Sequence record: DRR723986_8021
DNA length: 38,346 bases
Direction: 5' to 3' (one strand)
Shown here: piece by piece, positions 15,558 to 31,450 of the stretch
Position numbering within the stretch: position 1 is the stretch's first letter
How the letters are laid out: each line of letters starts with the position of its first letter
The notes under the pieces: model-generated
Databases searched by the model: none
Told to the model about the DNA's origin: nothing
The model's input: the letters and a program-made list of their open reading frames with translations, nothing else
Program-made: the position numbers and the translations under genes

Positions 15558-15613
15558 TTATCAGGGCGTTGAACTCGCGGACGGCTTGTTTCGCAGACAG
15601 AAAGACAAAATTT

Positions 15614-16366
15614 ATGATTGGTCAATTATCGCTGGTACTTGCTTCAGCAGTATTCCTTACCGGAACAGCGTTGGGGCAGGACGCCGAAGTGCCTGAAAAT
15701 GCGACCGCTAAACGGTATGGTTCCGGTTGGGAATGCAATGCAGGTTACCGCGAAGACACAGGCGCCTGCGCTGAGATTGCCATTCCGGTTAATGCTTATC
15801 CAACCAACAAGTCATATGGTACGGGGTGGGAGTGTAGCCGTGGTTTTTTGAAGGATGGTTCAGAGTGTAAACCAGTGTTTGTACCTGAGAATGCCTATTT
15901 GAACGACCGCGGTGACGACTGGGAATGTGTGCGGGGGTACCGCGCTAAAGGCGATGTATGCAATATGGTGGTTGTTCCCGAAAATGCGTTCCTATCCGAC
16001 AGCCGCCGTGGTCCGGGTTGGGATTGTCTTGAAACACACCGTATCGTTAATAACAAATGCGAACGGATTATTGTGCCCAAAAATGCCTATTTTGACCGAG
16101 GGTCTTATCTAACCAACTGGAAATGCATCCGCGGGTTTCGCGCTGAAGGCAACACATGTGCCGAGATTTCCGTGCCTGCCAATGCATATCTGTCAGATAG
16201 TTCCTACCAGTCTGGTTGGAAATGCGACAGAGGCTACACTGCTTCAAATTCTATGTGTGTTGCCATACGGGTTCCTGAAAATGCCCATCTGGACTCTTCA
16301 GGGAATGACTGGAAATGTGATGCGCAATATACCAAACGCGAAGGCGCTTGTGTTATTCGAAGCTAA
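15614..16366 (+). CDS. Secreted cysteine-rich tandem-repeat protein (7 repeats of 31-33 aa)
   Basis: Signal peptide 'MIGQLSLVLASAVFLTGTALG' from ATG 15614, then seven copies of (V/I)PxNAx(7-9)WxCxx(G)(Y/F)x6C. Confidence 0.88.
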   Translation: MIGQLSLVLASAVFLTGTALGQDAEVPENATAKRYGSGWECNAGYREDTGACAEIAIPVNAYPTNKSYGTGWECSRGFLKDGSECKPVFVPENAYLNDRGDDWECVRGYRAKGDVCNMVVVPENAFLSDSRRGPGWDCLETHRIVNNKCERIIVPKNAYFDRGSYLTNWKCIRGFRAEGNTCAEISVPANAYLSDSSYQSGWKCDRGYTASNSMCVAIRVPENAHLDSSGNDWKCDAQYTKREGACVIRS

Positions 16367-16389: not shown

Positions 16390-17535
16390 TTAAGTAATCG
16401 GCTTCTCGTAAACCCGGTAGGTTTTATAAACCTCACAGCCAATTTCCTCGAGGATGGAGCGCATGCCGTCGTTGTCCTCGAGGATCCAGCCCAATTCTCC
16501 CCAGTAAGCCCCGCGTTTTTCCACATGCTGGCGGCTCACATCGATCATCCACATTGACATAGCGGCCCCCAGAGGGCCCTTTTGGAACTTTTTGCGCACA
16601 CCCATCAGCGGAACGCGGCAGCGGTTCTCCTTGCCGTTTAGCATGCGGTAGGCAAGCTTAAAAATGCCAAAGGGCAACAGGTTGCCATCTAAATCGCTGA
16701 TTTTATGGTTCACATCAGGGATGGTGAGCATAAAGGCCACTGGCTCGCCGTCATATTCGCAAATATACGTGCGGTAGGGTTTCACCACCGGCTTCAGGCT
16801 TTTGGCACCGTGAGCAACTTCGGCGTCGGTGAAGGGTACATAGCCCCAATTGTCGCTCCAGGCCTCATTGTAGATGTCCAGCACAACCGCGACTTCTTCG
16901 TCGAAGCGTTTCATGTCGATGGGGCGCATGGTTACGCGCTTGTTTTTTTGCGCCATTTTAACAATGCGCATGGCGCGCTCGGGCATGGGAATGGTGAGGT
17001 CCAGCGAATAAGCGAACATATCGCGGGCTTTTTCCATGCCGCTTGTCTTCAGCCAGCCATCATAGGCGGGGCGACCGTGGGGCATCATCACACAGGGTGG
17101 TGTATCGAAGCCATCTACCAACGTGCCGACTTCCTCAGCGCTTGAGAGCGACCATGGGCCTTGCATGCGAGCCATACCTTGGCTTTTCAACCAGGCCTCA
17201 GCGGTTTGCAGGAGCGCATCAGCACATTCCTGGTCCAACGCCTCAAAAAATCCGAAGTGACCCAGGTTTGGCCCCCATTTTTCCTGCGCCAGATGGTCTA
17301 TTTGCGCGCTAATGCGGCCAACAAGCTTGCCGCCGCGCTCCGCCACCCACATTTTCACATCGGCATGGTCAAAATAAGGGTTTTTGTCGGCTCGCAGGGC
17401 TTCCATACGTTCCATCATTAATGGCTGGATCCAGTTTGGATCATTGGCATAGACAGTGCGCGTCACATTCACAAAGTCTTTCAGGCCTTTGTTATCGGTG
17501 ATCTCGCGAATGGTGATACTGTTTGATGAAGTCAC
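16390..17535 (-). CDS. bcerS: GNAT-fold N-acyltransferase, bacterial ceramide synthase (bCerS) family
   Basis: 'VYANDPNWIQPL', 'VGRISAQID', 'GHFGFFEA', 'DGFDTPPCVMMPHGRPAY', 'YNEAWSDNWGYVPFT', 'WILEDN', 'YKTYRVYEK'; located in a cluster with spt, ACP and reductase. GTG start. Confidence 0.85.
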   Translation of the reverse strand: MTSSNSITIREITDNKGLKDFVNVTRTVYANDPNWIQPLMMERMEALRADKNPYFDHADVKMWVAERGGKLVGRISAQIDHLAQEKWGPNLGHFGFFEALDQECADALLQTAEAWLKSQGMARMQGPWSLSSAEEVGTLVDGFDTPPCVMMPHGRPAYDGWLKTSGMEKARDMFAYSLDLTIPMPERAMRIVKMAQKNKRVTMRPIDMKRFDEEVAVVLDIYNEAWSDNWGYVPFTDAEVAHGAKSLKPVVKPYRTYICEYDGEPVAFMLTIPDVNHKISDLDGNLLPFGIFKLAYRMLNGKENRCRVPLMGVRKKFQKGPLGAAMSMWMIDVSRQHVEKRGAYWGELGWILEDNDGMRSILEEIGCEVYKTYRVYEKPIT

Positions 17536-17611
17536 AAAATATTCCCGTCATTGCCCAGCTATGTGTCTTGGATAACGAATTGGCGTGTTTTTGCAAGAAA
17601 GATAACGGCAG

Positions 17612-18715
17612 TTAGCCTTTTTGTGCTGCCCGAGATTCGCGCCATAACTGAGCGACAGCGGACAGTAGGCTTTTGCGCGAAGCGGCAAGAAACAGCCGGT
17701 TGTCTGGCAATTCGGCTTTCAACCTGAAATAGGCTTCTTCAAGCGCATGATAGGGCATGCCGGGAAACAGGTGATGAGTGGCATGAAAACGCAAGCCCAC
17801 AGGCGCCCAAAGGCTGGAGATATACCTATTGCCGGGGATGTCTACGCTATCAAGGAATTCCTGTTGGCGGTTCATGCGCTCGCGCCCGCCGTTGCGGTAG
17901 GCGTGGGCCGCTAATGTGCGTAGGCCGTTCAACACAAAGATTGAGAAGGTCACCACATACCAAACAGCAAAAAATTCTACCGGTAATACACCTATGTAAA
18001 GCAAGCCAAGCGCTGCATATGCATAGACACCGGTTAGGATATCTTCCAGCAACCAGCCATTTTCCTGGTCTTTCTTGGGGGCAGGGCGCACATAGGCGAA
18101 GTCAATCACAAGGCTGCTGGCGCGCTGCCAAATGTACGCGCGGAATTTGGCGCTAATGAGCGTTAGGGGCATCAACACCACATAACGCGCTGCCAAAAGG
18201 ACCGGCACAATGAAGGCCTGCGCTACAAAAGCAATGATCTTCCAGGGTTCATCAACCGCAAACGGCAGATACTCGCCGTCTTCAGCGGTGCCGTAATGCT
18301 GTGGTTTGTGATGGTCTATGTGTACGTCCGCATATGTATAGGCTGGCACCATCAGGGGCATTCCGCAGGTGGCGTTCCAAAACCGACGAAACCCGGTAAA
18401 TGTACCTTTGCGAAGGTGTGCCAGTTCATGAATGAAAATAACAGCACGATAAAGCGCCAACATGGCAACAAACAACGCTGCAAACTGGATTAGAGACGCA
18501 AAAGGTGTCAACACAGCAACGGCAACAGCGCCCCAGCCGATGAGGGCACTTAATGTGAAATCAACCCAATAAATGGTGGCGTTTGGCTCCCACAGGTCTT
18601 TAACCAGCCTGCGTGCTTCCTTGAGCGGAAAATCAGCCGCTTCAGGGTGCGCGCCAGAAATCGCTCGCTTTTCAGCGTGATCTGTTTCTGAACTGTCGCC
18701 AACAACCGCTTGCAT
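17612..18715 (-). CDS. Membrane fatty acid desaturase/hydroxylase (three His boxes)
   Basis: HELAH, HIDHH and FHATHHLFP boxes with intervening TM helices. Confidence 0.9.
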   Translation of the reverse strand: MQAVVGDSSETDHAEKRAISGAHPEAADFPLKEARRLVKDLWEPNATIYWVDFTLSALIGWGAVAVAVLTPFASLIQFAALFVAMLALYRAVIFIHELAHLRKGTFTGFRRFWNATCGMPLMVPAYTYADVHIDHHKPQHYGTAEDGEYLPFAVDEPWKIIAFVAQAFIVPVLLAARYVVLMPLTLISAKFRAYIWQRASSLVIDFAYVRPAPKKDQENGWLLEDILTGVYAYAALGLLYIGVLPVEFFAVWYVVTFSIFVLNGLRTLAAHAYRNGGRERMNRQQEFLDSVDIPGNRYISSLWAPVGLRFHATHHLFPGMPYHALEEAYFRLKAELPDNRLFLAASRKSLLSAVAQLWRESRAAQKG

Positions 18716-18754
18716 TACGTTAGTTCCAATATACCGGTAGCTGTATGCTACTGT

Positions 18755-20314
18755 TTATGACTTCGAGCTTCGACTTAGCCACTGGCCTGCTTTGCCAAGG
18801 GCTGCAACATCCTTCGGTTTCAGGCCATATCGCACCAAAACTAGCAGCGACACAATAAGCCCAAATATGGCGGTTATAAGACCCGCCGGCGCAGGCAGTT
18901 TTGGCCCAAACTCTGCTAGGGCCACCAAAGCTGCGGCAGAGATAAGCGAAACGAAGGCTGGTTTCAAGGTTTCTGCGCTGTATGGCCACAGTTTAAAAAT
19001 AAAAACTGTTTGTGCAAAGGCCAGATAGGCGGTGATATTCAGGCCTGTTGCTGCGGCAATGGCAGCACCCGTAACCCCGTGTTCCGGTATCAGCATCCAA
19101 CCCAAGTACACAAACACCAGCAGGCCGATCAAACCATTAATCGGCGGCAGTGACCGGTGACCTAGCATTTCAATGATAGATTGTGACGGGCCGCTGGCGG
19201 CTTCAAGAACGCGTCCAGCCACCAAAATCGCTATGGCGGCTGCAGCGGCTTGGAAGCCGGGTTCAAGGGCGCTTAAAATGTCTGGCCTGGCTAAATATAG
19301 TGCTGCACCAAAGGGCAGGGCCATACACAGCGACATGCGTGTTGCAAAGGCATACATTTTCTGCAAACGGTCTTTGTCGCCTTTGCCTGCTTTTTCGGCT
19401 GCAAGCGGGGCCATAACATATTCGAAGGCTAGGCGCACAACCTGCAACGCACTGGCAAGTTTACGGGCAACTGAATAATAGCCGCCCGCTGCCGCACCAG
19501 CCGCCCCCGGCAACATGAAGTTCAGCATCATCACCGGAAACTCGCTGAACAGCTTTTTGATCAGGTTTGACGGCATGACAGTGAAGCCATATTTACTCAT
19601 GTCATGGGCAATCTGACCGGTCATTTTGGCGCGCACAAGCGCGGCCATATCATAATGTTTGGCGACCAATCGCAGGGCCAGTATCGCTGCTAGAATAACG
19701 CTCAACAAGTGCGCGAGAAAAAGACCATATGTATCTAAACCTAAATAAAAAAATGAAACTGCAGCTATAAGTCTTAAGCCTTGCTCATAAAAAATACGTA
19801 CCCGGATTTCCGGGCCAAATTTACGCCGCGCTCTGATGGCTGCTGTACCAACCTCTACCGCTGTCCAGAAGGGTAAAACCCAGACATAAAGGCGAATAAC
19901 ATTTGTCAGGTGTTCCTGGTCATCTGCGCCCACATTGATAAATTCTGAAATGCTGGGTGCGTAGTATGTGCCCAGCCCGGCAAAGCCGCATGCCAGCAGA
20001 AAGCTTAATTTTAGGGCAAACCCTGCAACAGCTGCTTCATCTTGCTTGGGCGCGCGGGGGACAAAGCGCTGCAATGCCGTGGTCATGGCGGCGTCTGATA
20101 GCGCGGTGGACACCTTGACATAACTCCAGAGAACGGCGAACAGGCCGAAGGTTTCTGCGCCGTAGGCCCAAGTAAATACAACAACTGACAAAGCTTCAAT
20201 AAGCGCGCCCAAACGGCCCAAAAAGGCAAGGCTTGCCCCGCCTGCAACTTGCCGCAGGTCATGTGCCGACTCTTCATTAGTCGGTGGCGTTGGGTCAGGT
20301 GATGCGTTGGTCAT
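18755..20314 (-). CDS. MOP-superfamily (Wzx/MurJ-like) lipid flippase
   Basis: 519 aa, about 12-14 hydrophobic segments; 'YGAETFGLFA', 'ALQRFVP', 'AGGYYSVA', 'LIPEHGVTGAAIA' are typical of polysaccharide-biosynthesis flippases. Confidence 0.85.
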   Translation of the reverse strand: MTNASPDPTPPTNEESAHDLRQVAGGASLAFLGRLGALIEALSVVVFTWAYGAETFGLFAVLWSYVKVSTALSDAAMTTALQRFVPRAPKQDEAAVAGFALKLSFLLACGFAGLGTYYAPSISEFINVGADDQEHLTNVIRLYVWVLPFWTAVEVGTAAIRARRKFGPEIRVRIFYEQGLRLIAAVSFFYLGLDTYGLFLAHLLSVILAAILALRLVAKHYDMAALVRAKMTGQIAHDMSKYGFTVMPSNLIKKLFSEFPVMMLNFMLPGAAGAAAGGYYSVARKLASALQVVRLAFEYVMAPLAAEKAGKGDKDRLQKMYAFATRMSLCMALPFGAALYLARPDILSALEPGFQAAAAAIAILVAGRVLEAASGPSQSIIEMLGHRSLPPINGLIGLLVFVYLGWMLIPEHGVTGAAIAAATGLNITAYLAFAQTVFIFKLWPYSAETLKPAFVSLISAAALVALAEFGPKLPAPAGLITAIFGLIVSLLVLVRYGLKPKDVAALGKAGQWLSRSSKS

Positions 20315-21513
20315 TTAGAGTTAGCAGAAGCTGTTGGTGGTTCTGGTAGCGGGGCTGGTTTTTTTCGCAATCGACCAAAAGGTCTAAGCTGTGGTTTGCC
20401 TTCTTCGGTGTAGAAAATGACCGTGTAGCCAACCAGAAAGAATAAGAAAAATGGCGCCCATGCCGCTAGAAATGGAGGCGCAACGCCAAACTCACCCATT
20501 GCCAGCATGAAATTGTCTGCGACAAAAAAGCTGAAACCCAATGCCATGCCAAATACTAACCGGATAACCAAGCTACCGCCGCGCGAAACACCAAAGGCTG
20601 CTACAGCTGCTAGAAGTGGCATCAATAATGTAGAAGCGGGTGCCGCAATTTTTTGCAGGAGACTGGCCATTAGGCGATCGGTCGACAGGCCTTCTTCTTC
20701 CAACCGCTGCATTGACTGCCACAGCTCGCTAAATGAAACTTGGTCCGCTTTCACGTTCAGCGCCAAGAATCTTTCAGGGCGCGTGGGTATTAACCATGGC
20801 ACCGAAGGTGTTACAGAAAGTAAGTGCGAGTTGGCATCGAAACGGCGCACTTCGTGTAGTGTCCATTTGTCATTCTGGTACCAGGCAAAATCAGCCTTTA
20901 CCATAGCTTGTACGCGGCCTAGTTTGTCACGTTCAAAAATGGAAACACGGTCTAAAATAACCCTGTTGCGAACTGTGCTTACAGATTCGACCAAAACAAC
21001 GCTGTTGCCTTCTCTCACCCACGTACGCCCTGCTAAGTTGGGGTTGGTTGGCAAATCAACGGCGTAGTCGTTGGCTTCCCAATATTCAAGGTCACGGTTG
21101 GCATCAGTGACGATGGTTTCATTGAAAATGAAATGTGAAATACCAATCAACAATGAGGCTATGCCTAACGGCAACAGAATTCGGTGCGCAGACAGGCCGC
21201 TGGCCTTCATAACAGTGACTTCACTGCTTTGGTTCAATGTTGCTAGTGTTAACAATGTGGCCAAAAGAGCGGCAAACGGCGCGAACTGGCTGATAAGTTG
21301 GGGTGCCCGCATACTGACATATGACACGATAGACACCCACGTCGCGCCTTCTGCCGCCATGATATTGTCTGCAGTAGCAAGCAAATCAAGCATTTGAAGC
21401 ACAACGGTTAGGCCGATAAGAATGCCAAAAAAGCGGCTCAGGTGCATTTTCACCATATAGCGCGCAAGCGTGCGTGACGGTATTAGCAAGCGCCTGATAG
21501 AGCGAAGCATCAT
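20311..21513 (-). CDS. lptG: LptG-like permease (probably a sphingolipid-associated paralog)
   Basis: 3 TM helices, periplasmic beta domain, 3 TM helices; 'LNQSSEVTVMKASGLS', 'LAAWAP'. Overlaps both neighbours by 4 nt. Confidence 0.88.
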   Translation of the reverse strand: MMLRSIRRLLIPSRTLARYMVKMHLSRFFGILIGLTVVLQMLDLLATADNIMAAEGATWVSIVSYVSMRAPQLISQFAPFAALLATLLTLATLNQSSEVTVMKASGLSAHRILLPLGIASLLIGISHFIFNETIVTDANRDLEYWEANDYAVDLPTNPNLAGRTWVREGNSVVLVESVSTVRNRVILDRVSIFERDKLGRVQAMVKADFAWYQNDKWTLHEVRRFDANSHLLSVTPSVPWLIPTRPERFLALNVKADQVSFSELWQSMQRLEEEGLSTDRLMASLLQKIAAPASTLLMPLLAAVAAFGVSRGGSLVIRLVFGMALGFSFFVADNFMLAMGEFGVAPPFLAAWAPFFLFFLVGYTVIFYTEEGKPQLRPFGRLRKKPAPLPEPPTASANSK

Positions 21514-22748
21514 GATTGCCCTCCGTCAGCTTGCTGGCCTGATGATTGGCCAATGCCCACAATGCGTTTGCCAAGTCGTTTGATGGGTCCGGAAACCGAT
21601 GATACTGCTGTATCAATGTAGGCTAAAGGCTCACCACCTGCTTTAAAGGCGGCTGTGCGGAAGAAAATGAAACTGATTAAGGCAAAGGCTGCGAATAACG
21701 CCCAAATGGTGAAATAGGGTGATGCGCCACCTTTTACGGCAGTTTCCATACCTTCCATTAATTCATTGTAAACAATAAGCATGGCCAATCCGATGACAAT
21801 ACCTGTGCCTCGACCGGTACGTTTATTGGTTATGCCCATGGGCATGGCAAGAAATGGCAAGATGAAGAAAGAGAGTGTATGCATTAACCGCCAGTGAAAA
21901 TTGGCGCGAAAAGCAGCACGAGCATCCACCGAGTTTAGCGGGTTATCCATTTCTACGAACAATTCTGGCAGAGTAAGCTCCAGTTCCTGACCGCCACGGT
22001 CTCGAAAAACCTCGCGTTCGGGCAGCTTGATGGTTAGGTCCTGTCGTTCAAAGTTCAGAACACGGGGTTTGTTCTGGCTTTCGTTTAAGTCAATCAATAC
22101 GCCGTTAAACAGGCGCAGCAAAATTGTTTGATCATCGTCTGTCGCGAAGAAACCGCCGCGCTCAGCGGTAACGGTAATGCTACTGCGGGCGTCACGGCGT
22201 TCAAGGAAAATGCCAGCAAGTTCTGCACCTTGGTTGCGGGATTCTTCGATCATTAAAGTAATGTCGTTGCCGATTTCTACGAATTCGCCGACACGAATAC
22301 TGGCACCAAGGGCGCCGCTCCTCAGGTCAAAAACAAGGCCGCGGTAGGCATATTGACTGTAAGGCTGGATCCAACCAACCAGAACAGTATTAATTACCGC
22401 CAGTAAGGCCGCTAAAAACAACAAGGGCCTTACGAGTTGGGGCAGACTGGTACCCGAAGAGGTTATGGCGTCATATTCGCTTGAAAGTGAAATTTTCCGA
22501 AAGGCAACCAGCACACCGAGTAATAAGCCAACTGGCAGGGCAAGACCCATGTAGTGCGGCGTTAGGTTTGCAAGCATGCGGAACACCACTTCAACCGGTC
22601 CGCCCTGATTAACGACAAAGTCAAACAGTTTGAGCATGCGCTCTAAAATAAGTAAAAGCGCTGCAACACCCAATGTTATAAACATGGGCGATAAAACCTG
22701 CCGTAGAATGTAACGGTCAATGCTTGTGAATAGAGAACGATTGAACAT
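21510..22748 (-). CDS. lptF: LptF-like permease (probably a sphingolipid-associated paralog)
   Basis: 'IDRYILRQ', 'LALPVG', 'SEYDAITSSGTS' coupling helix, 'WIQPYS', 'FHWRL..LAMPMG'. Confidence 0.88.
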   Translation of the reverse strand: MFNRSLFTSIDRYILRQVLSPMFITLGVAALLLILERMLKLFDFVVNQGGPVEVVFRMLANLTPHYMGLALPVGLLLGVLVAFRKISLSSEYDAITSSGTSLPQLVRPLLFLAALLAVINTVLVGWIQPYSQYAYRGLVFDLRSGALGASIRVGEFVEIGNDITLMIEESRNQGAELAGIFLERRDARSSITVTAERGGFFATDDDQTILLRLFNGVLIDLNESQNKPRVLNFERQDLTIKLPEREVFRDRGGQELELTLPELFVEMDNPLNSVDARAAFRANFHWRLMHTLSFFILPFLAMPMGITNKRTGRGTGIVIGLAMLIVYNELMEGMETAVKGGASPYFTIWALFAAFALISFIFFRTAAFKAGGEPLAYIDTAVSSVSGPIKRLGKRIVGIGQSSGQQADGGQS

Positions 22749-22931
22749 AGGAAGGCGCTACACTGGTTAAAGAGATGTTTCAAGAGACATTTCTGTATCT
22801 TCCACCCTGTAATCATGGCAGAAAAAAGAGAATATTTCGCTAAATTGTCATAAAAAGGGCCACAATTCTGACACCATACGCGGTTTATTTTTATTAATAG
22901 TTTGATTTTAGAGTACCAACCGGAGGCCTTT

Positions 22932-23534
22932 ATGGCACAGTTTATATCAAATTTCTCCAGAATTACAGGCGGTGGAATTCAAGGGAACGGTTTGCGGTCA
23001 CTTGCTTCAACATTTTCTTTCTTTGCCCTGTTGGCGGTTACTGTTCCCTCTGGGGCTGATGATGCGCCGTCAAAATTAACCAAGCAGAATAATACCGGCA
23101 GCGTTTGTGAAGCTGAGGCGGGACAGGCGGCACTGGAGGTCACGGTTGAGAATTTACAAACGACCGAAGGCCAGATGCGGGCACAGATATACAGTTCTGA
23201 TCCGGATGAGTTTCTGGAAAAGGGTAAAAAACTGGTGCGGGTTGATGTTCCGGTTGAAACGCTGGATGGCCCTACCATTTGTGTGCCGCTACCTGCGCCG
23301 GGAACATACGCACTGGTTGTGATGCACGATAAAAATTCGAATGGCAAAGCTGATTTTTTCAGTGAAGGCTTTGGGTTTTCAAATAATCCAAAATTATCTT
23401 TGGCCCCGCCTGACGGCGAAGATGTTATGTTTGTTGCAAATGCAGGTGTTAGCAAACACAAGATTGAACTGAACTATATTTTTGGCGGTGATGACGAGAA
23501 AAAAGAAAAGCGACGTAAGCTAAAGCGTCGCTAA
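22932..23534 (+). CDS. DUF2141-family exported protein
   Basis: Hydrophobic N-terminal segment, 'LEVTVENL...GQMRAQIY', 'PGTYALVVMHDKNSNGKAD..EGFGFSNNP'. ATG 22932 follows GGAGG at 22922. Confidence 0.82.
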   Translation: MAQFISNFSRITGGGIQGNGLRSLASTFSFFALLAVTVPSGADDAPSKLTKQNNTGSVCEAEAGQAALEVTVENLQTTEGQMRAQIYSSDPDEFLEKGKKLVRVDVPVETLDGPTICVPLPAPGTYALVVMHDKNSNGKADFFSEGFGFSNNPKLSLAPPDGEDVMFVANAGVSKHKIELNYIFGGDDEKKEKRRKLKRR

Positions 23535-23551
23535 CCCCAAAAAGCTTAAGA

Positions 23552-23580
23552 TTGAAAAATTGCTGGAATGCGCGTATAGC
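23552..23580 (+). promoter_or_regulatory. Candidate sigma70-type promoter
   Basis: TTGAAA (23552-23557), 17 bp spacer, TATAGC (23575-23580). Confidence 0.4.
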
Positions 23581-23604
23581 ATGCCACTTGATAGTTGAGC
23601 AGAT

Positions 23605-23629
23605 GGGGCCAAGCGGTCCCTTTTGTTTT
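23605..23629 (+). terminator. Terminator-like hairpin between the DUF2141 gene and the lipid kinase gene
   Basis: GGGGCC-AAGC-GGTCCC followed by TTTTGTTTT. Confidence 0.55.
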
Positions 23630-23721
23630 ATTTAATGGTTGTTTTGATGAGTATTTGCTGTGCGCGGGCCCAAAATGAAGTTTGCCTAAAAGCAATGACA
23701 AAAGGTTGAGATACCGCTTTC

Positions 23722-24726
23722 ATGCAGGTTCAAAAACATACAATCAATAGCGGCGCCACGGTGCCGCTTGTCGTGATGATCTCCAATCCGCTTAGCACCA
23801 CAAATGCTAAGAATATGGATGATATTCGCGCGATTGTAGAGGCCAGTGCCAATGTAGTACACTACGAGTTGGACGGCATTGACACTTTGCATGACGCCAT
23901 GGAGCTTTTTTCTCGTGCTAACCCGGCTATGCTCGTTATTAATGGCGGTGATGGCACCATTGGTGCGGCGCTAGCATCCCTACTTTATCAAAACCCGTTT
24001 AGTGTTATTCCCCCCATTGCGTTTTTGCCGGGCGGCAAAACCAACATGACAGCAGCTGACCTTGGCTTTAAAGGTAGCCCTGTTAAGGTGCTGAAAAAAT
24101 TGCTAAAAATTGCTCAGGCAGGGCAAATTCCTGATTTGCTGACAAGCCGTAACCTCATTGAAATGGACTTGGGGGATGGCACGCCGCCTAAAGTAGGAAC
24201 GTTCTTTGGCACTGCGGGCATTGTACGTGGTATTTTTTGGTGCCGGGAAAATGCCTATGCAAAAGGGTTGCCCAATTCAGTAGCGCATGTTTGGTCAGCT
24301 TATAAGTTGATTACGTCTGCGCTTGGGCTTTCTCGGTCCAAGGGTTTGATGATCTCGGACCCAATGTCGATAACGGTGCCGGGCAGCGCACGTATGAGCG
24401 GGCGCTATTCAATTGTGATGAGCACAACACTCGATAGACTTTTATTCGGCGTTAAACCATATGGCAGTGAAGGTGCTGGCGGGCTTAGGTTTTCAGCCTT
24501 AGAAGCCGGACCGGCAACACTCATCCGGTCCTTTATTGGTCTGATTACCGGGCGGTTTGGCAACAGTTCCATCGCGGGACTGCATGTACGCAAGAGTGAT
24601 CAAGTACGCATTGAAGGTACGGACCCGGTGACACTGGACGGTGAGATATACCAACCCTTGCCCGATAAGCCCGTTGTGTTGAAGGGTGACCGCTCGCTAA
24701 CCTTCATATCTTTGAAAAAGAAGTGA
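23722..24726 (+). CDS. cpgB: Diacylglycerol/sphingosine kinase-family lipid kinase, likely ceramide kinase (CpgB-like)
   Basis: 'ISNPLS', 'INGGDGTI', 'FLPGGKTNMTAADLG', 'VTLDGE'; adjacent to spt as in the Caulobacter sphingolipid locus. The family call is strong; the specific symbol rests on context. Confidence 0.75.
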   Translation: MQVQKHTINSGATVPLVVMISNPLSTTNAKNMDDIRAIVEASANVVHYELDGIDTLHDAMELFSRANPAMLVINGGDGTIGAALASLLYQNPFSVIPPIAFLPGGKTNMTAADLGFKGSPVKVLKKLLKIAQAGQIPDLLTSRNLIEMDLGDGTPPKVGTFFGTAGIVRGIFWCRENAYAKGLPNSVAHVWSAYKLITSALGLSRSKGLMISDPMSITVPGSARMSGRYSIVMSTTLDRLLFGVKPYGSEGAGGLRFSALEAGPATLIRSFIGLITGRFGNSSIAGLHVRKSDQVRIEGTDPVTLDGEIYQPLPDKPVVLKGDRSLTFISLKKK

Positions 24727-24736
24727 TGTCTGCTTG

Positions 24737-25726
24737 ATGGTTAAAACATCTTCCATATCACAAGAAGCCGCTGTCGGATTAGGAGAAGCCACACCTGGCG
24801 CGTTGGTTGATTTTGTTCTCAAGGAATGGAATCGCGACGTGCCATCTGCTGTTTTGACAGCCGCGCAGGATATTGCGAGTAAATACGGCGACTGTGTGCA
24901 GGGTGTGCTTTTTTATGGCTCTTGCCTTCGTACTGGCGAAATCGAAGATAAAATTCTGGACTTTTACGTGATCGTAGACAGCTACAAAGCGGCTTATGAC
25001 AAGCGTTGGCTGGCGATTGCGAACCAAATTATTCCACCAAATGTTTTTTATCATGAGATGGATGTTGACGGCATCATGGTTCGTTCAAAATATGCAGTTG
25101 TTTCAAAGGGTGATCTGGGGTTCCGGGTTAGTAAAGCCTGCTTGAATGTTTCCATATGGGCTCGGTTCTGCCAACCCTGCATGCTTTTGTTAGCAAATAA
25201 TGATGCGAAAGCATCAATTGCGCAAGACATTGCCACATCAATTGAAACAATGCTGTGCAACCTTCTTGAGTTAAAGCCTTGGGCGCTGGAGTCGAGAGAC
25301 TTATGGGTGGCGGCATTTGAAGAAACATATGCGGCAGAGCTGCGCTCTGAGCGTGGTGGTAAGGGGCTTGAGATATACCTTCTTGACCAAGCACGCTATG
25401 ATGACGTGACACCAATTGCCTTGCGTGCGCTGGAAGTTGATATAGACAGCGAGGCGGCGATGCCTCCGGCTACCCAACCTGCGCGCTCAGATAACTTTCA
25501 GGCGAAACTGACGTGGTTTACGCGCAGATTGAACGGAAAAATTGTCAGTTTTCTCCGTTTGGTAAAAGCATCCATGACGTTTGATGGCGGTATTGACTAT
25601 TTAGCCTGGAAAATCAGGCGGCATTCTGGCGTTGAGGTTGAAATTAAGCCATGGATGCGCAAACACCCGATTATCGCGGGTGTTGCCTTGTTTTGGAGTG
25701 TGCGCCGGAAGGGTGCGTTTCGCTAA
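24737..25726 (+). CDS. Pol-beta-superfamily nucleotidyltransferase, Tam41-like (probable CpgC homolog)
   Basis: 'VLFYGSCLR..ILDFYVIV', 'PNVFY', 'KYAVVS', 'WARFCQP', 'TYAAELRSE'; lies between the lipid kinase and spt. Confidence 0.7.
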   Translation: MVKTSSISQEAAVGLGEATPGALVDFVLKEWNRDVPSAVLTAAQDIASKYGDCVQGVLFYGSCLRTGEIEDKILDFYVIVDSYKAAYDKRWLAIANQIIPPNVFYHEMDVDGIMVRSKYAVVSKGDLGFRVSKACLNVSIWARFCQPCMLLLANNDAKASIAQDIATSIETMLCNLLELKPWALESRDLWVAAFEETYAAELRSERGGKGLEIYLLDQARYDDVTPIALRALEVDIDSEAAMPPATQPARSDNFQAKLTWFTRRLNGKIVSFLRLVKASMTFDGGIDYLAWKIRRHSGVEVEIKPWMRKHPIIAGVALFWSVRRKGAFR

Positions 25727-25747
25727 ACAGATAAACCTTAAATTAGG

Positions 25748-26944
25748 TTATACTTCCAGGCCAACTATCTCTGCGGTGCGTTTGAATCGGGTAATGATTT
25801 CATCAATTTGCGCGCTTGTATGCTGTGCGCAAACACTGATCCGCAGCAAGAACATACCGGCTGGAGTGGCTGGCGGTGCTGCCATATTGGCATAAACGCC
25901 TTCCTCTAGCAGCTGTTCCCAAAATTTCGTGCCAATCATGGCGTCAGGGAGGTGCACAGCAACAATGGGGCTTTCAGCCGTTTCTGTGCACATGGCAAAA
26001 CCTGCACTTTTCAGGCCAGCGTGCAGCTGGCGGGCATTTTCCCACAAGTGGGCACGGCGGTTGCCGCTGCGGCTAATCGCTTTTATCGAAGCGGTTGCAG
26101 ATGCCACCACACTTGGTGGCAGGCTTGCCGTAAAGATATAGGGGCGACTAACAAAGCGCAGCACATCAAACTTTGGGTGGTTGGAAACAGCAAATCCGCC
26201 CACTGTGCCCACAGACTTGGAAAAAGTGCCGACAATAAAGTCTGCCAAGTGCTCAACACCGAGTTCTTCGGCGATACCACGGCCATTTTCGCCGCAGAAA
26301 CCCATAGAGTGGGCTTCATCAACAAGTGTCATACAGCCATATTTCTTGGCAACTTCAAGAAGCTCTTTGAGCGGGGCGGCATCGCCGAGCATGGAATACA
26401 TGCCTTCAACCACAACAAGTTTACCAGCATCTGCTGGCAATCGCTTCAAGCGGCGCTCCATATGCTCAACATCATTGTGCTTAAACCGAACGATTGTGGC
26501 GTTGCCCATCGCACAGCCATCGTAAATAGACGCATGGCTGTCCGCATCAATGATGACAAAATCATCCTTGCCGCCAAGCGCAGATATTATGCCTAAATTT
26601 GCCTGATAGCCGGTTGAGAAGACCATGCATTCTTTCATGCCGTAAAAGTCTGCAATAGTTGCTTCCAAGGCTTTGTGCCCACCGTAGGTGCCGTTTAAAA
26701 CCCGCGAACCTGTTGTGCCGGTGCCAAAGTCATCCAGCGCTTTTTTTGCCGCTTCAATGGCATCCTCGTTAAAGGTCATGCCCATGTAGTTATTGGTGCC
26801 AGCCAGAATAGTGTGCCTGCCGCCAATAATGGCTTCAGTTTCGGAAATTACTTCCTCGATGACCACTTTGAAAGGGTCGGCTTTTCGGAACGGAAGCGAG
26901 GCTTTCAGGTTTACAACTGAATCAAATTTATCAAGTAAATCCAA
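25748..26944 (-). CDS. spt: Serine palmitoyltransferase (AOS family, PLP)
   Basis: 'GTNNYMGMTF', 'GTTGSRVLNGT', 'DSHASIYDG', 'DEAHSMG', 'GTFSKSVGTVGGF..SNHPKF..RPYIFTASLPPSVVA' closely match sphingomonad SPT. Start is likely TTG at 26944; the ORF track gives 26962. Confidence 0.93.
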   Translation of the reverse strand: MDLLDKFDSVVNLKASLPFRKADPFKVVIEEVISETEAIIGGRHTILAGTNNYMGMTFNEDAIEAAKKALDDFGTGTTGSRVLNGTYGGHKALEATIADFYGMKECMVFSTGYQANLGIISALGGKDDFVIIDADSHASIYDGCAMGNATIVRFKHNDVEHMERRLKRLPADAGKLVVVEGMYSMLGDAAPLKELLEVAKKYGCMTLVDEAHSMGFCGENGRGIAEELGVEHLADFIVGTFSKSVGTVGGFAVSNHPKFDVLRFVSRPYIFTASLPPSVVASATASIKAISRSGNRRAHLWENARQLHAGLKSAGFAMCTETAESPIVAVHLPDAMIGTKFWEQLLEEGVYANMAAPPATPAGMFLLRISVCAQHTSAQIDEIITRFKRTAEIVGLEV

Positions 26945-26948
26945 GGAA

Positions 26949-27194
26949 CTAGCCCTTTTCAACGATTGTTTCTACAGCATCTGCTACCTGGCCAATTGTC
27001 TCAAGGTCTGGCAACATGTTCAGAGGTAAAATAATATCAAAGTCATCTTCAATATCTGCAACCAAATCCATAACAGTCAGGCTGTCCAACTCAAGGTCAG
27101 CCGCGAAAGTTGTCGATTCAGTAAGCTCAACACCCTTTTTATTTAAAGGGCTGATCAAGCTGTAAATTGTATCTAAAGTTGCTGTCTTAGCCAT
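26949..27194 (-). CDS. Acyl carrier protein dedicated to sphingolipid synthesis
   Basis: 81 aa, acidic, phosphopantetheine site 'DLELDSLTVMD'; immediately upstream of spt. Confidence 0.93.
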   Translation of the reverse strand: MAKTATLDTIYSLISPLNKKGVELTESTTFAADLELDSLTVMDLVADIEDDFDIILPLNMLPDLETIGQVADAVETIVEKG

Positions 27195-27264
27195 TTTTTT
27201 CTACCTACCATACCAGCCCGATGGGGTGGTTACATACTTGTTCGTTATATCTATATGTGTTGGA

Positions 27265-28221
27265 TCATAAAAGATCATTTTTCCGGTACCATTCAATGGT
27301 ATCCAATAAACCGGCTTTAAGATCAAAATGTGGCGACCACTTTGCATGTTTGAACCGGCGTGGCTCTTTCACTGTCCAATCGGGGTGACAGAGATATTTC
27401 GCAGTGGATAAAGTGAGCATTGCTGGGCGATTTATTGCTTTGGCCACTAAGCCGTTAATCGCGCCAATACTGCCAAGTAACGGGAAAGGCACGGGAATGG
27501 CCTTTGCACTCTTGGTCGCGCCGTCGGGCAAGGCCTTTGCGACATCTTTAACCGTATAGCCACCTGCCAAGCCATCATCTATTTCAACGATGGCCTGACC
27601 ATTGCTTTTGTCACACAAAACAACAAGCGCATTGGCCAGATCGCTGGCATGAATCATGGAAAATCTGTTCTTCGTGCCGCCGGGGGCAGGCAAAATGCCG
27701 AACTTTGTGGCTTTTAAAAGTTTCAAAATCTCTTTGTCGCCGGGGCCGTATATGGCCGGGGGTCTGACTATTGTCCAGCTGAACGGCCATTTTCTTGCTG
27801 TTAGTAAAAGTTCTGAGCCGGCCTTGCTAGCGCCGTAATGCGACAGCCTAGGCTCACGGGCAGACAGGCTGGAAACATGAATAACATGGGAAACACCCGC
27901 CGTTTGGGCGGCTTTGAACAAAGATTTGCTGCCACCGACGTTAATATCGAAAAACGCATCTCGGCTTAATGCTTTGGTTAGCCCAGCTAAATGCAACAAG
28001 ACATCACAGCCTTCAACAAGCTTTTGCAGGCTAGCTTCATCGGTTAATGAACCCTCAATCCAGTCGATTGTATCTGTGCTTTTCTTTGGGGTGCGTGTTA
28101 GGGCCTTTATGCTATATCCACCGGCTTCAAGGGCGCGCAAAACATGGCCACCGAGAAAACCGGTTGCCCCGGTCAATGCTACTTTTTGACCGTGTCTAGA
28201 TTTTACAGTTTTTGATGGCAT
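27265..28221 (-). CDS. cerR: Extended SDR (NAD-dependent epimerase/dehydratase fold), likely ceramide reductase
   Basis: 'TGATGFLG', 'HVSSL', 'YGASK' (YxxxK), 'VRPPAIYGPGD'; lies between acyl-ACP synthetase and acp-spt, as in Caulobacter. Confidence 0.8.
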   Translation of the reverse strand: MPSKTVKSRHGQKVALTGATGFLGGHVLRALEAGGYSIKALTRTPKKSTDTIDWIEGSLTDEASLQKLVEGCDVLLHLAGLTKALSRDAFFDINVGGSKSLFKAAQTAGVSHVIHVSSLSAREPRLSHYGASKAGSELLLTARKWPFSWTIVRPPAIYGPGDKEILKLLKATKFGILPAPGGTKNRFSMIHASDLANALVVLCDKSNGQAIVEIDDGLAGGYTVKDVAKALPDGATKSAKAIPVPFPLLGSIGAINGLVAKAINRPAMLTLSTAKYLCHPDWTVKEPRRFKHAKWSPHFDLKAGLLDTIEWYRKNDLL

Positions 28222-28235
28222 GACGTGCCTCTAGA

Positions 28236-29984
28236 TTAACTGGCAATCGCCTGTAGGTTGCCTGTTAAATATTCATTACGGGCTTTTGTACGACTAAGTT
28301 TACCGGAAGATGTGCGCGGCAAAGACTTTGGCGGCACCAGCTCAACCATACAGTTTATGCCAGTTTCAGACTGAATTTGCTTTTTCAGTGCGTCTACCAA
28401 CTGCATTCGTTCACTGTCACCAGAAATACGGCATTGCGCCAATATCATCGGAATTTCTTCTGCATTATCACCAGGAATAGAAATTGCGGCAACATCACCT
28501 TTTTTAAGGCCTTCCACTTGTTCTGCAGCCCATTCAATGTCCTGCGGCCAATGGTTGCGGCCATTCACAATAATCATGTCTTTGGCACGGCCCACAATAT
28601 ATATGCAGCGGTCTTTCATGTAACCCATATCGCCAGTATCGAGCCAGCCTTCTGGGCTTAAAACCTCGCGCGTGGTCTCTGGGTCATTGAAGTACTCGCG
28701 CATAACAGATGTACCGCGCAAATAAACCCGTCCAACTTGACGGTCTGCCAGCGGGGTGTCGCCTTCGTCGCGAATTTCTATTTCGTATTCAGGTAGGAGC
28801 TTGCCGCAGTTCACAACTTCCCGCATGCGGTTGTCGTCAGAGCCCTTAACAAGCATCTGGCGGTCACCGGTAAGGGCAGCTTCTTCGATAAGGTCAATTT
28901 CAATGCCGTTGCCCACGGTGCCAAAGCTTACACCGAGTGTACATTCAGCTAGGCCATAGCTTGGTAAAAAAGCTTTATCGGAAAAACCGATCTGCCCAAA
29001 AGTGTCGTGAAATTCTTTCATAACCTCGGGGCGGATCATTTCAGCACCAATGCCGGCAACTCTAACGGCGCTAAGATCCAAGCCTTCCATGGCACTGGCG
29101 CGCATAGCAGCGCGGCGCGTGCAAATATCAAAACCAAATGTAGGGCTGTAGGTTATTGTGCCTTTGGTTGCACTCAAAACCCGCAGCCAACTCATGGGGC
29201 GCCTTGCAAATTCTTCGGTCGGGATAAAATCAACCGACAACTGACAAGTGAGTGAGGTTAGCAGGGTGCCAACTAAACCCATATCGTGATAAAATGGTAA
29301 CCAGGAAACGCAGCGGTCCGTGTCCACGAGAGGAACACCGTGAAAGCCCATACCGTGAGTATTGGCTAATAGTGATCGATGAGTAACCGAAACGCCGTGT
29401 GGGAACCGTGTGCTACCCGATGAATATTGTAGGTAAGCTAGGTCGTCCGGTGTTGGCAGGTTTGGCTCACCTTCGCCTTCAGCATTAAGGTAAGCGTCAA
29501 TGTCACCGCAAAATGTTAAATCAAGTTCTTTGGTGGCATCTGCCACTATTTCGTCCATGAACGCAGGTGCCATTAGGCCGTTGGCTTTGCAGCTTTGCAT
29601 TTGCATTGTCAGCTGAGAAACATAGCCCTCTTTACCACCAAATGACGTTGGTAGAGGGAGTGGCACAGGCAGGACACTAGCGTATTGGCAGCCAACAAAG
29701 AAACATACGAAGTTTGCACTGGATTCTGCAATCAAGGCAACACGGTCGCCTCTTTGAAAGCCCATACCGACAAGTTTACGGCCAATAACTTCGGCGCGGT
29801 CACGAATTTGTTTCCAGGTAATGCTTTCGCTAACGTCGCCGCGCGCATTGAAAAAGTTAACACCGCGCTGGCCTTTGGCAGCATATTCTATTGCTTCAAT
29901 AAGGGTTTCAAAGTCTGAAAATCGGCGCTCCAACGACGGATCAAGCGTTGGCGTGACTTCCATCTGCGCGTTTGTATCGACCAT
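28236..29984 (-). CDS. Fatty acyl-AMP ligase / acyl-ACP synthetase loading the sphingolipid ACP
   Basis: 'AYLQYSSGSTRFPHGV', 'SWLPFYHDMGLVG', 'PSYGLAECTL', 'WLDTGDMGY', 'GRAKDMII..GRNHWPQDIE', 'LPRTSSGKLSR'. Confidence 0.92.
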   Translation of the reverse strand: MVDTNAQMEVTPTLDPSLERRFSDFETLIEAIEYAAKGQRGVNFFNARGDVSESITWKQIRDRAEVIGRKLVGMGFQRGDRVALIAESSANFVCFFVGCQYASVLPVPLPLPTSFGGKEGYVSQLTMQMQSCKANGLMAPAFMDEIVADATKELDLTFCGDIDAYLNAEGEGEPNLPTPDDLAYLQYSSGSTRFPHGVSVTHRSLLANTHGMGFHGVPLVDTDRCVSWLPFYHDMGLVGTLLTSLTCQLSVDFIPTEEFARRPMSWLRVLSATKGTITYSPTFGFDICTRRAAMRASAMEGLDLSAVRVAGIGAEMIRPEVMKEFHDTFGQIGFSDKAFLPSYGLAECTLGVSFGTVGNGIEIDLIEEAALTGDRQMLVKGSDDNRMREVVNCGKLLPEYEIEIRDEGDTPLADRQVGRVYLRGTSVMREYFNDPETTREVLSPEGWLDTGDMGYMKDRCIYIVGRAKDMIIVNGRNHWPQDIEWAAEQVEGLKKGDVAAISIPGDNAEEIPMILAQCRISGDSERMQLVDALKKQIQSETGINCMVELVPPKSLPRTSSGKLSRTKARNEYLTGNLQAIAS

Positions 29985-30252: not shown

Positions 30253-31449
30253 ATGACCATGAATGCCTCAGGACTGTCCCCTAAAACCATAGCGCAAGTT
30301 CGAATGCAAACTCCCGGCCTAGGGGGCCGTATCCATTTGGATAACAGCGGTTCGGCTCTAATGGCCCAGTCGGTCATTGATGTAATGCAGCATGCATTTG
30401 AGCGTGAAATAGCTGTTGGTGGCTATGTTGCACAGGCGCAACAGGCATCCGCTATGGACGCAGGTTATGCATCATTAGCTGCTTTGCTTGGTGGGAAAGT
30501 TGATGACTATGCTTTTGTGGGCAGTGCCGTTGATGGTTGGACCAAAGCATTTTATAGTCTGCCCTTGACGGCAGGTGATAATATTGTCACCGCCTATAAT
30601 GAATATTGTTCGAACTATATCGCCTATCTCCAGTTACAAAAAAATCGCAACGTTGAAATACGTGTCGCGAGGCAAGCCGCTGAGGGCGGCGTTGACCTTG
30701 AGCACCTTCAATCGCTTATCGATAATCGTACTGCCTTAATCAGTTTGAGCCATATGCCTGCGTCCAGCGGCGAGATTAACCCTGTTGAAAAAGTTGGAAA
30801 AATTGCAAAATCTGCGGATGTTTTGTTTCAGTTGGATGCCTGTCAGTCTACGGGGCATGTACCAGTAAATGTTGATCTGATTGGCTGTGACATAATGACA
30901 GGTACATCACGAAAGTTTTTGCGTGGTCCGCGCGGTATCGGCTTTTTATATGTAAATGCAAAAGCCCGTACAGTGATGGAGCCAGTTGTTTTGACCAATC
31001 AATCTGCAGAGTGGTCCGGCGCTGATAGTTATTCTCTCCGTCAAGATGCCCGTGTATTTGAAGCCTGGGAGCGCAGCGTTATCAACCAACTAGGTTTTGC
31101 CGCAGCGATCGACTATCTCCTTGAATTGGGTGTTGATGCGGCAACAGCGCAAATATCTATAAATGCGACGTATTTGCGATCTCGTTTGTCTGACCTGAAA
31201 AATGTTTACGTGGAATGCCCCAAAGGCTCATCATCAGCTATTATTACACTTAACGTGAGCGGTTCCAAACCGGAAGAGGTGAAAGCGGCGCTTGAAAAGC
31301 AAAATATAGCCGTTCAGACAGCGAGCGTTGTGCACACACGCTTGGACTTAGAAGCACGCGGCATTGTATCAGCGGTGCGCGTTTCTCCGCATTATTATAC
31401 CAATCAAGAAGATATGGATGCTTTGTTAGAAGCACTGGAGGCGCTGTAA
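30253..31449 (+). CDS. Class V aminotransferase-fold PLP enzyme (cysteine desulfurase-like, lacking the persulfide Cys)
   Basis: 'IHLDNSGSALM', 'LDACQSTGH', 'TSRKFLRGPRGIGFLYV' (PLP Lys), 'VRVSPHYYT'. Confidence 0.88.
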   Translation: MTMNASGLSPKTIAQVRMQTPGLGGRIHLDNSGSALMAQSVIDVMQHAFEREIAVGGYVAQAQQASAMDAGYASLAALLGGKVDDYAFVGSAVDGWTKAFYSLPLTAGDNIVTAYNEYCSNYIAYLQLQKNRNVEIRVARQAAEGGVDLEHLQSLIDNRTALISLSHMPASSGEINPVEKVGKIAKSADVLFQLDACQSTGHVPVNVDLIGCDIMTGTSRKFLRGPRGIGFLYVNAKARTVMEPVVLTNQSAEWSGADSYSLRQDARVFEAWERSVINQLGFAAAIDYLLELGVDAATAQISINATYLRSRLSDLKNVYVECPKGSSSAIITLNVSGSKPEEVKAALEKQNIAVQTASVVHTRLDLEARGIVSAVRVSPHYYTNQEDMDALLEALEAL

Positions 31450-31450
31450 C

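Follow-up and report, generated by a model that had tools for sequence, protein, structure and literature searches.

What lipid would be made by the twelve contiguous genes at positions 16390..29984 of sequence record DRR723986_8021, and for which kind of outer membrane? The stretch analysed, here called the window, is 38,346 nucleotides long, and the original prediction had read these genes as a self-contained locus for the synthesis, modification, flipping and export of a sphingolipid, perhaps an undescribed variant of the pathway. The explanation adopted here, with good confidence, is that they are the phosphosphingolipid locus of the Alphaproteobacteria as carried by a Kordiimonadaceae member, and that they serve an outer membrane free of lipopolysaccharide (LPS) of the type known from Sphingomonas. 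The locus is a known kind of pathway and its arrangement is not new.

Ceramide core and head group

All twelve open reading frames (ORFs) were found within 16390..29984, in three blocks and on the strands first read, and the family models agreed with the labels of the original prediction. The genes occupy one stretch of 13.6 kb and are listed below with the basis of each assignment.

28236..29984, minus strand: aasR, acyl-ACP (acyl carrier protein) synthetase of the fatty acyl-AMP ligase type, 582 aa (NF006624, P-loop, position)
27265..28221, minus strand: cerR, ceramide reductase, an extended short-chain dehydrogenase/reductase (SDR), 318 aa (PF01370, motifs, position as CC_1164)
26949..27194, minus strand: acpR, dedicated ACP, 81 aa (PF00550, DSL motif, directly before spt)
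25748..26962, minus strand: spt, serine palmitoyltransferase, 404 aa (NF047599, PDB Spt matches, GTFSK)
24734..25726, plus strand: cpgC-like nucleotidyltransferase of predicted Tam41 fold, 330 aa (motif, predicted fold)
23722..24726, plus strand: cpgB-like ceramide kinase, 334 aa (PF00781, GGDGT, directly before cpgC)
22902..23534, plus strand: DUF2141 protein (PF09912); the likely start is the ATG at 22932, with GGAGG ahead of it, giving 200 aa
21510..22748, minus strand: lptF2, sphingolipid-type LptF, 412 aa (TIGR04407, tree placement)
20311..21513, minus strand: lptG2, sphingolipid-type LptG, 400 aa (TIGR04408, tree placement)
18755..20314, minus strand: MOP/Wzx-family transporter, candidate phosphosphingolipid flippase, 519 aa (PF01943)
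17612..18715, minus strand: membrane di-iron desaturase/hydroxylase, candidate ceramide hydroxylase or desaturase, 367 aa (PF00487, His boxes, fold)
16390..17535, minus strand: bCerS, ceramide synthase (GNAT N-acyltransferase), 381 aa (weak PF00583, homologues in sphingolipid loci)

The oxoamine synthase encoded by spt passed the family model NF047599 with 601 bits (cut-off 500) and scored 250-324 bits with the BioF, Kbl and HemA models, each time below the cut-off. Its closest PDB matches were the Spt entries 2x8u (E 8e-165) and 2jg2, with Kbl at E 2.5e-68, and it carries the GTFSK motif with Lys249. The comparison with BioF, Kbl and HemA proposed in the original prediction thus came out for Spt, and these three identities were rejected, as the Spt model was passed and the Spt structures scored far higher. 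A blastn search of spt against E. coli genomes gave no match. A scan of GTDB contigs, in which 80 of 95 Spt relatives were kept, served as conservation sample. The nearest relatives were metagenome-assembled genomes (MAGs) at 92-94% Spt identity, followed by named Kordiimonas species at 77-86%; by these identities the host is placed in the Kordiimonadaceae.

AasR is an AMP-binding protein (NF006624, 782 bits, cut-off 600) with the P-loop YSSGST at residue 187, and its gene is the first of the aasR-cerR-acpR-spt block in relatives. CerR has TGATGFLG at 17 and YGASK at 129, and the DSL motif of AcpR includes Ser38. The bCerS protein found no relative in a PDB sequence search and is 39-47% identical to the GNAT proteins of ten other alphaproteobacterial loci, whose genes neighbour spt, lptF2 or cpg genes. 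The five genes of the published rhodobacterial ceramide pathway are therefore accounted for, four in a block that includes the dedicated ACP and acyl-ACP synthetase, and the bCerS-type GNAT nearby in a separate block. Catalytic motifs were intact in Spt, ACP, reductase, ligase, kinase and desaturase. With the Spt model and structures and the full published gene set around spt, the ceramide pathway of the original prediction stands. AasR would activate a fatty acid and load it onto AcpR, Spt would condense the AcpR-borne acyl group with serine, bCerS would add the N-acyl chain and CerR would reduce the 3-keto group to give dihydroceramide; these steps have been shown in Caulobacter and are proposed for the window from family and position.

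The kinase belongs to the DAGK_cat family and has GGDGT at residue 75, the motif named for CpgB (10.1101/2023.05.01.538943); a PDB sequence search gave no relative. Its gene lies directly before cpgC, as CC_1160 before CC_1161. The CpgC-like protein had no Pfam or NCBIfam match, and its PDB sequence search returned only a weak nucleotidyltransferase match (E 0.03). It shares the motif FYGS..D.Y with 12 homologues, and its predicted model (pLDDT 83.5), used as a Foldseek query, gave Tam41 as the top five matches (E 5e-8 to 9e-7, TM ~0.45; 7ecd at E 4.8e-8). The nucleotidyltransferase label was thereby upheld by fold. With the Tam41 CDP-diacylglycerol synthases (7ecd, 6ig2, 6ig4) the protein has in common the fold and an N-terminal nucleotidyltransferase motif, at 13-15% identity and TM ~0.45-0.5, whereas its substrate is presumably ceramide-1-phosphate. 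A DAGK-family kinase with a GGDG motif thus stands beside a Tam41-like protein, the mark of the CPG branch, and CC_1161 itself is described as Tam41-like (PMC11324152). CpgB would phosphorylate ceramide to ceramide-1-phosphate, and the match of the second protein to CC_1161/CpgC, together with its predicted fold, suggests conversion of ceramide-1-phosphate to CDP-ceramide, the probable route to one phospho-head group.

CpgA to CpgD are defined in PMC9393093, PMC12275187 and 10.1101/2023.05.01.538943. A cpgA-type CDP-alcohol phosphotransferase is absent from the window. A cpgA-like protein of locus L070 (PF01066; identity inferred from position), used as the one query, gave strong matches in five of 38 genomes, three Iodidimonas-type and two Aestuariivirga-type with the query's own included, and no strong match in 28 Kordiimonadaceae-group genomes. 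Since the family yielded no cpgA, synthesis would probably end with a single phospho-head group, and CPG2 would not be expected.

Two further arrangements of head-group genes were seen. A full CPG2 set of the Caulobacter type, with cpgA-, HIT-, phosphoesterase-, cpgD- and CC_1153-like genes, is present in three Aestuariivirga-like Hyphomicrobiales MAGs (L070, L079 and L080). Among the closest relatives of the window, a myo-inositol-1-phosphate synthase gene adjoins a CDP-alcohol phosphotransferase gene (L130:1057-3276 in G003, L131:1054-3219 in G001), a possible inositol-lipid head-group module, and G003 has a weak MOP-type match close to this pair.

The transporter matched PF01943 with 40 bits (cut-off 28), a family which we take to correspond to IPR002797. 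By this family and its place in the spt locus it appears analogous to CC_1166, and it would probably flip the anionic lipid. Genome-wide searches found strong orthologues in 12 of 50 genomes, none in the twelve Emcibacter-type genomes without a copy in the locus, and none in nine LpxC-positive bCerS-positive genomes. From twelve Emcibacter-type loci cpgC, DUF2141 and the MOP gene are jointly absent, and cpgC was not found in any of the four Emcibacter-type genomes searched genome-wide. This joint absence is probably one loss event, and therefore hints only faintly that the flippase handles the CpgC product. The Emcibacter-type loci (L056-L068, L062 being too short to score) keep only a divergent kinase of 20-26% identity; lpxC was not found in the four of these genomes that were tested. 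Judged from these genes, the head group of the Emcibacter-type surface lipid must differ.

Surface transport and the probable loss of LPS

Both transport proteins passed their models, LptF with 236 bits on TIGR04407 (cut-off 230) and LptG with 282 bits on TIGR04408 (cut-off 240). In a quick tree of 38 rows each clustered with spt-linked copies, LptF in a group of 13 rows (SH-aLRT 96) and LptG in one of 7 rows (SH-aLRT 99), apart from the lptD-linked copies. The lipid kinase and export role of the original prediction are borne out by this placement and by the DAGK_cat kinase beside the Tam41-fold protein. Its claim of a self-contained locus is not, since LptA, LptB and LptD are encoded elsewhere; nor, for the relatives, is that of an extra LptF/G pair forming a route of its own. 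In the four relatives with the window's arrangement that were first checked, the spt-linked pair gave the sole LptF/G matches. The search of 50 genomes gave exactly two matches in 40 and a sub-threshold third in 2, and all nine genomes with the exact arrangement of the window had exactly two. LpxC-positive bCerS-positive genomes had four matches in four of five cases and three in the fifth. The window LptFG is probably the cell's only pair.

LpxC over cut-off was found in none of the 50 genomes, 45 of which are of Kordiimonas, Iodidimonas or Emcibacter type and include isolates and two single-chromosome assemblies, and in none of 201 genomes of the GTDB order. The same search detected it in 130 of 151 genomes across the Alphaproteobacteria, a class-wide sample used as control because five Hyphomicrobiales genomes meant as positive controls were also negative; the unpublished G245, one of the 151, was counted in class tallies only. 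LpxB and WaaA were each found in none of five relatives, LptD and LptA in all five, and lptA-lptB is present in G120. The usual genomic sites of the lpx genes were empty. In G120, G004 and G003, bamA is followed by a skp-like gene (our own label; no Pfam match), fabZ and then gltA, with no lpxD, lpxA, lpxI or lpxB between them, and moaE comes after ftsZ, with no lpxC there. Likewise pepA abuts lptD in five of five relatives, and in three LpxC-positive genomes lptFG adjoin lptD. Across the class sample bCerS occurred in 12 of 21 LpxC-negative as against 11 of 130 LpxC-positive genomes, counts uncorrected for kinship.

This is the state described for Sphingomonas, which lacks LpxC, LpxB and WaaA and keeps LptA/D/E, and in which the sphingolipid LptFG of S. 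wittichii is the only LptFG of the genome (bioRxiv 10.64898/2026.04.12.717747): the relatives have no lpxC, lpxB or waaA, keep LptA and LptD, and usually hold only the spt-linked LptFG. In Caulobacter, LptF2 and LptG2 interact with each other and with LptB (Uchendu 2026, bioRxiv 10.64898/2026.04.12.717747) and are essential when the anionic sphingolipid is made (same source). LptF2G2 with the cell's single LptB would thus extract the lipid, as shown in Caulobacter, and LptA and LptD would deliver it to the surface.

LPS has apparently been lost in the close relatives of the window, where the sphingolipid probably replaces it as in Sphingomonas, a probable loss that the original prediction overlooked. 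The Kordiimonas-, Iodidimonas- and Emcibacter-type bacteria are, by their gene content, probably LPS-free with a Sphingomonas-type outer membrane, and it is very likely that the Kordiimonadales, Iodidimonadales and Emcibacterales and, separately, Aestuariivirga-like Hyphomicrobiales are unrecognised LPS-free bacteria. The literature covered gave no account of these orders losing LPS, subscription journals and species descriptions lying largely outside it. As a point against an undescribed variant, spt and its partner genes were reported to peak in a group that includes the Kordiimonadales, in passages that do not mention LPS (Geiger 2023, PMC10411912). Table S5 of that paper and the bioRxiv supplements may list the present genes.

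In the Aestuariivirga-like Hyphomicrobiales MAGs L070, L074, L078, L079 and L080 (G209-G213), lpxC was found in none of the five, and in G213 the runs ftsZ-bamD-recN, bamA-fabZ-gltA and pepA-lptD are without the LPS genes. Lipid A may have been lost independently here, in a lineage outside the sphingomonads.

If LPS loss is confirmed, the naturally LPS-free Gram-negatives would widen from the Sphingomonadaceae to three marine orders. A shared loss would bear on joining these orders with the Sphingomonadales, as GTDB does and PMC8879329 argues against in favour of separation, and on the use of these orders as mitochondrial-ancestor models (PMC10411912). Kordiimonas isolates, with the whole pathway in 13.6 kb and usually a single LptFG pair, would offer a clean system for the study of sphingolipid flipping and outer-membrane transport.

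The desaturase and the alternative explanations

The PF00487 enzyme has His boxes HELAH at 96, HIDHH at 132 and HATHH at 311. A PDB sequence search with its alignment found no relative, and its fold matched 8xks_K (Z 19.4), AlkB (Z 12.3) and SCD1 (Z 7.7), that is, the membrane di-iron fold. Its gene occupies a variable slot between the MOP gene and cerS, which in 38 complete loci holds the desaturase (9 loci), a PF04116 hydroxylase (8 loci) or, in the others, a small PF01588 protein or nothing. The window protein has no PF04116 domain and gave no alignment to the PF04116 slot protein. Of 39 Kordiimonas-, Iodidimonas- and Emcibacter-type genomes, 36 have the desaturase family, 35 of them in single copy and mostly away from the locus; 35 have the desaturase only, three the PF04116 hydroxylase only, one both and none neither (Fisher p 4e-4, kinship uncorrected), so that the three without desaturase belong to the four with the hydroxylase. 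The 8 class-sample genomes that carry the family are all among the 23 of 151 with bCerS (p 9e-8, uncorrected).

Among 80 metagenome loci of the family, 21 have a sphingolipid gene nearby and 59, many of them short, do not. After two weak cpgD matches were dropped, the 21 comprised three Kordiimonas-type loci, ten beside an spt-like gene, one beside cerS and DUF2141, and seven beside a cpgD-like gene. In the ten spt-like loci, cerS-like and cerR-like genes lie behind the spt-like gene where the contig reaches, and the best model for the spt-like genes is the Bacteroidota Spt, under its cut-off. A tree of the desaturases placed sphingolipid-linked copies on six separate branches, with the Kordiimonas in-slot copies nested among unlinked ones; because of this nesting, the gene is taken to have moved into the slot recently.

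In several lineages the family thus recurs beside sphingolipid genes, and it tends to stand in for the PF04116 hydroxylase. The window enzyme would, in all likelihood, be a ceramide-modifying oxygenase, and most likely hydroxylates ceramide. Action as an acyl-chain hydroxylase, by analogy with Caulobacter CCNA_00202, which we take to be the protein named CerH, appears more likely than desaturation of the base. CCNA_00202 is described as a DesA-family desaturase/hydroxylase acting on the amide-linked acyl chain (PMC11324152). It sits outside the Caulobacter locus, whereas the PF00487 gene sits inside that of the window. No report of this desaturase family was found in the literature covered, which largely leaves out subscription journals. 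If its role is confirmed, the family would be a testable candidate for ceramide tailoring.

Action on the sphingoid base, as a DEGS-like delta-4 desaturase or a C4-hydroxylase giving sphingosine- or phytosphingosine-type ceramides with the rest of the pathway unchanged, is a possible if doubtful alternative. The desaturase and the PF04116 enzyme show no sequence relationship, and the two occur together in G032, G293, G313 and G324, in the last within one locus, which suggests different chemistry; moreover, two of 30 Atlas look-alike clusters have Lipid_DES PF08557 in 13% of their members. The near-exclusive distribution of the two enzymes and their shared slot before cerS fit the same job instead, the Caulobacter enzyme is of the DesA family, and the window protein has no match to PF08557, the N-terminal domain that accompanies PF00487 in eukaryotic DEGS. 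Somewhat less likely still is the joint proposition that the three orders and the Aestuariivirga-like lineage are LPS-free and that the PF00487 enzyme represents an uncharacterised sphingolipid-specific oxygenase family, distinct from the Caulobacter hydroxylase and PF04116, which desaturates or hydroxylates the base. In that case these marine bacteria would produce phospholipids based on sphingosine or phytosphingosine, resembling those of eukaryotes.

It is unlikely that the gene encodes an ordinary phospholipid acyl desaturase whose arrival was fortuitous, like that of csaA in other Kordiimonas species. The changing content of the slot, the unlinked copies of most relatives, among which the in-slot copies nest, and the 59 metagenome loci would fit such an origin. 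Against it stand the presence of bCerS in every family-bearing genome of the class sample and the six separate tree branches on which the desaturase gene neighbours spt, cerS or a cpgD-like gene. Three plasmid homologues (37-40%) gave no link, and one that was inspected sits among unrelated genes.

A cell that keeps LPS as in Caulobacter, with the same ceramide locus and the window LptFG as a second, sphingolipid-only pair, is very improbable. It would be the published Caulobacter state, found also in LpxC-positive bCerS-positive genomes, and the absence of LpxC is known from the genomes of relatives, 8 of 50 having extra LptF/G copies. Opposed to it are the lack of LpxC in all 45 related genomes, isolates and single-chromosome assemblies among them, the lpx genes and LPS-type lptFG missing from their usual sites, and the nine genomes of the same arrangement with only two LptF/G matches. 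That the locus makes another amino-lipid, or that its synthase is BioF, Kbl or HemA, is scarcely credible: Spt stays below the cut-off of one model and the pathway is known here from genes alone, but NF047599 was passed, scores on Spt models and structures were about twice those on BioF, Kbl and HemA, and the full published gene set surrounds the gene.

Several observations nonetheless weigh against the explanation preferred here, a phosphosphingolipid locus with a ceramide-modifying oxygenase in an LPS-free cell. All gene absences beyond the window are those of relatives (closest Spt 92-94% identical), many of them incomplete MAGs. Further full-length LptF/G copies, one to three per genome, occur in eight of the 50 genomes; one of these copies was placed in the tree, in the spt-linked clade, and in the quick tree a long-branch copy near cerS (L326) grouped with lptD-linked copies. 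Spt scored 620 bits on the alphaproteobacterial model NF047603, under its cut-off of 670, and orthology to the Caulobacter genes is drawn from family models, fold, order and trees, with no direct alignment. G012 has cpgC and no strong MOP orthologue. Four genomes have both the desaturase and the PF04116 hydroxylase, and most relatives carry the desaturase gene outside the locus, 9 of the 38 complete loci having it in the slot. Finally, a 2020 survey found no sphingolipid reports outside the Sphingomonadales (PMC7179689).

Extra LptF/G genes were seen in several settings. Kordiimonas gwangyangensis (L091, G005:C5:15932-19987) has one additional, unpaired lptF, which belongs to the sphingolipid-type clade, next to DUF2334, membrane protein and DUF2141 genes, and extra pairs occur in G079, G108, G125, G073 and G096. 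The locus of Kordiimonas marina (L013) lacks lptF and DUF2141 and keeps lptG, with three further LptF/G matches elsewhere in the genome.

Gene order, known loci and neighbouring genes

The clustering of the twelve genes is not due to chance, because 38 of the 55 loci that span aasR to cerS, out of 80, hold all 11 non-oxygenase genes. The order is not unique to the window. G246, from the class sample, keeps the 12-slot order (cerS, PF04116 hydroxylase, MOP, lptG, lptF, DUF2141, kinase, nucleotidyltransferase, spt, acp, cerR, aasR) with the hydroxylase instead of the desaturase, and G012, of Qipengyuania type, has cerS, the desaturase family of the window, lptG and lptF in a run. Nor can the gene set be called an undescribed variant, for it has been published for Caulobacter and for six further species; orthologues are described from Hyphomonas, Sphingomonas, Zymomonas, Nitrosomonas, Azotobacter and Pseudomonas (PMC11324152).

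The Caulobacter cluster CC_1152-1168 includes the five ceramide genes, kinase CC_1160, Tam41-like CC_1161, lptF2/G2 and the IPR002797 flippase CC_1166 (PMC11324152), and the names spt, aasR, acpR, cerR, cerS, cpgB, cpgC and lptF2/G2 are listed by Olea-Ozuna 2024 (PMC11324152). The window shares with this cluster (CC_1152-CC_1168 / CCNA_01210-01226; PMC11324152, PMC9393093, 10.64898/2026.04.12.717747) the aasR-cerR-acpR-spt block, cpgB and cpgC pointing towards spt, lptF2-lptG2 lying upstream of cerS, a gene of the polysaccharide-flippase family (CC_1166) and the lack of lptB in the locus. It differs in being without cpgA, cpgD, CC_1153, CC_1158, HIT and lptC2 and in having DUF2141 and the desaturase inside the locus; Caulobacter also keeps lipid A genes and LPS-type lptFG, whereas the relatives of the window are without both. 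S. wittichii (Swit_3897-3908) has cerR, acpR, spt, cpgC, cpgB, lptF, lptG and cerS in one run, by locus tag, with aasR and the flippase elsewhere and with cpgA and cpgD, whereas in the window all is found within the 13.6 kb and cpgA is seemingly absent. Zymomonas mobilis likewise has cpgB and cpgC without cpgA and is predicted to make CPG and not CPG2 (S2C Table, PMC11324152), but its genes, contiguous in the window, are spread over ten regions.

The intergenic gaps of the lptF-lptG-MOP-desaturase-cerS block (-4, -4, 39 and 76 bp) fit an operon. A promoter scan of the window gave 15 sites for 15.9 expected, a chance level, as did the terminator scan, and tRNA and Rfam scans of the window had no matches. 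The locus has a GC content of 0.46-0.53, the same as its flanks; with the recX upstream that is conserved across the family, this led to a horizontal island being rejected.

Divergent from aasR and upstream of it, as in most Kordiimonadaceae loci, lie a SufS/EgtE-like pyridoxal phosphate enzyme gene and recX (30253-32068, plus strand); the linkage of recX to the locus extends out to Emcibacter. At the other end an ORF at 15554-16366 (plus strand) runs towards cerS; its product begins like a signal peptide and continues with EGF-like repeats rich in cysteine (a weak PF12946 match below the cut-off). The ORF occupies this place mainly in genomes whose slot holds the desaturase. Further away, a carboxyltransferase gene at 11887-13398 (plus strand) has a GC content of 0.57 against 0.47-0.50 in its flanks. 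In another locus two transposase-like ORFs, recognised by translation, lie between desaturase and cerS (L022:19222-20366). A compact operon of desaturase, spt-like gene, bCerS, cerR and CDP-alcohol transferase gene, in this order, was seen on low-GC marine metagenome contigs (L200, L204-L207, L210, L212, L214, L217, L220) and is whole in L204 and L217.

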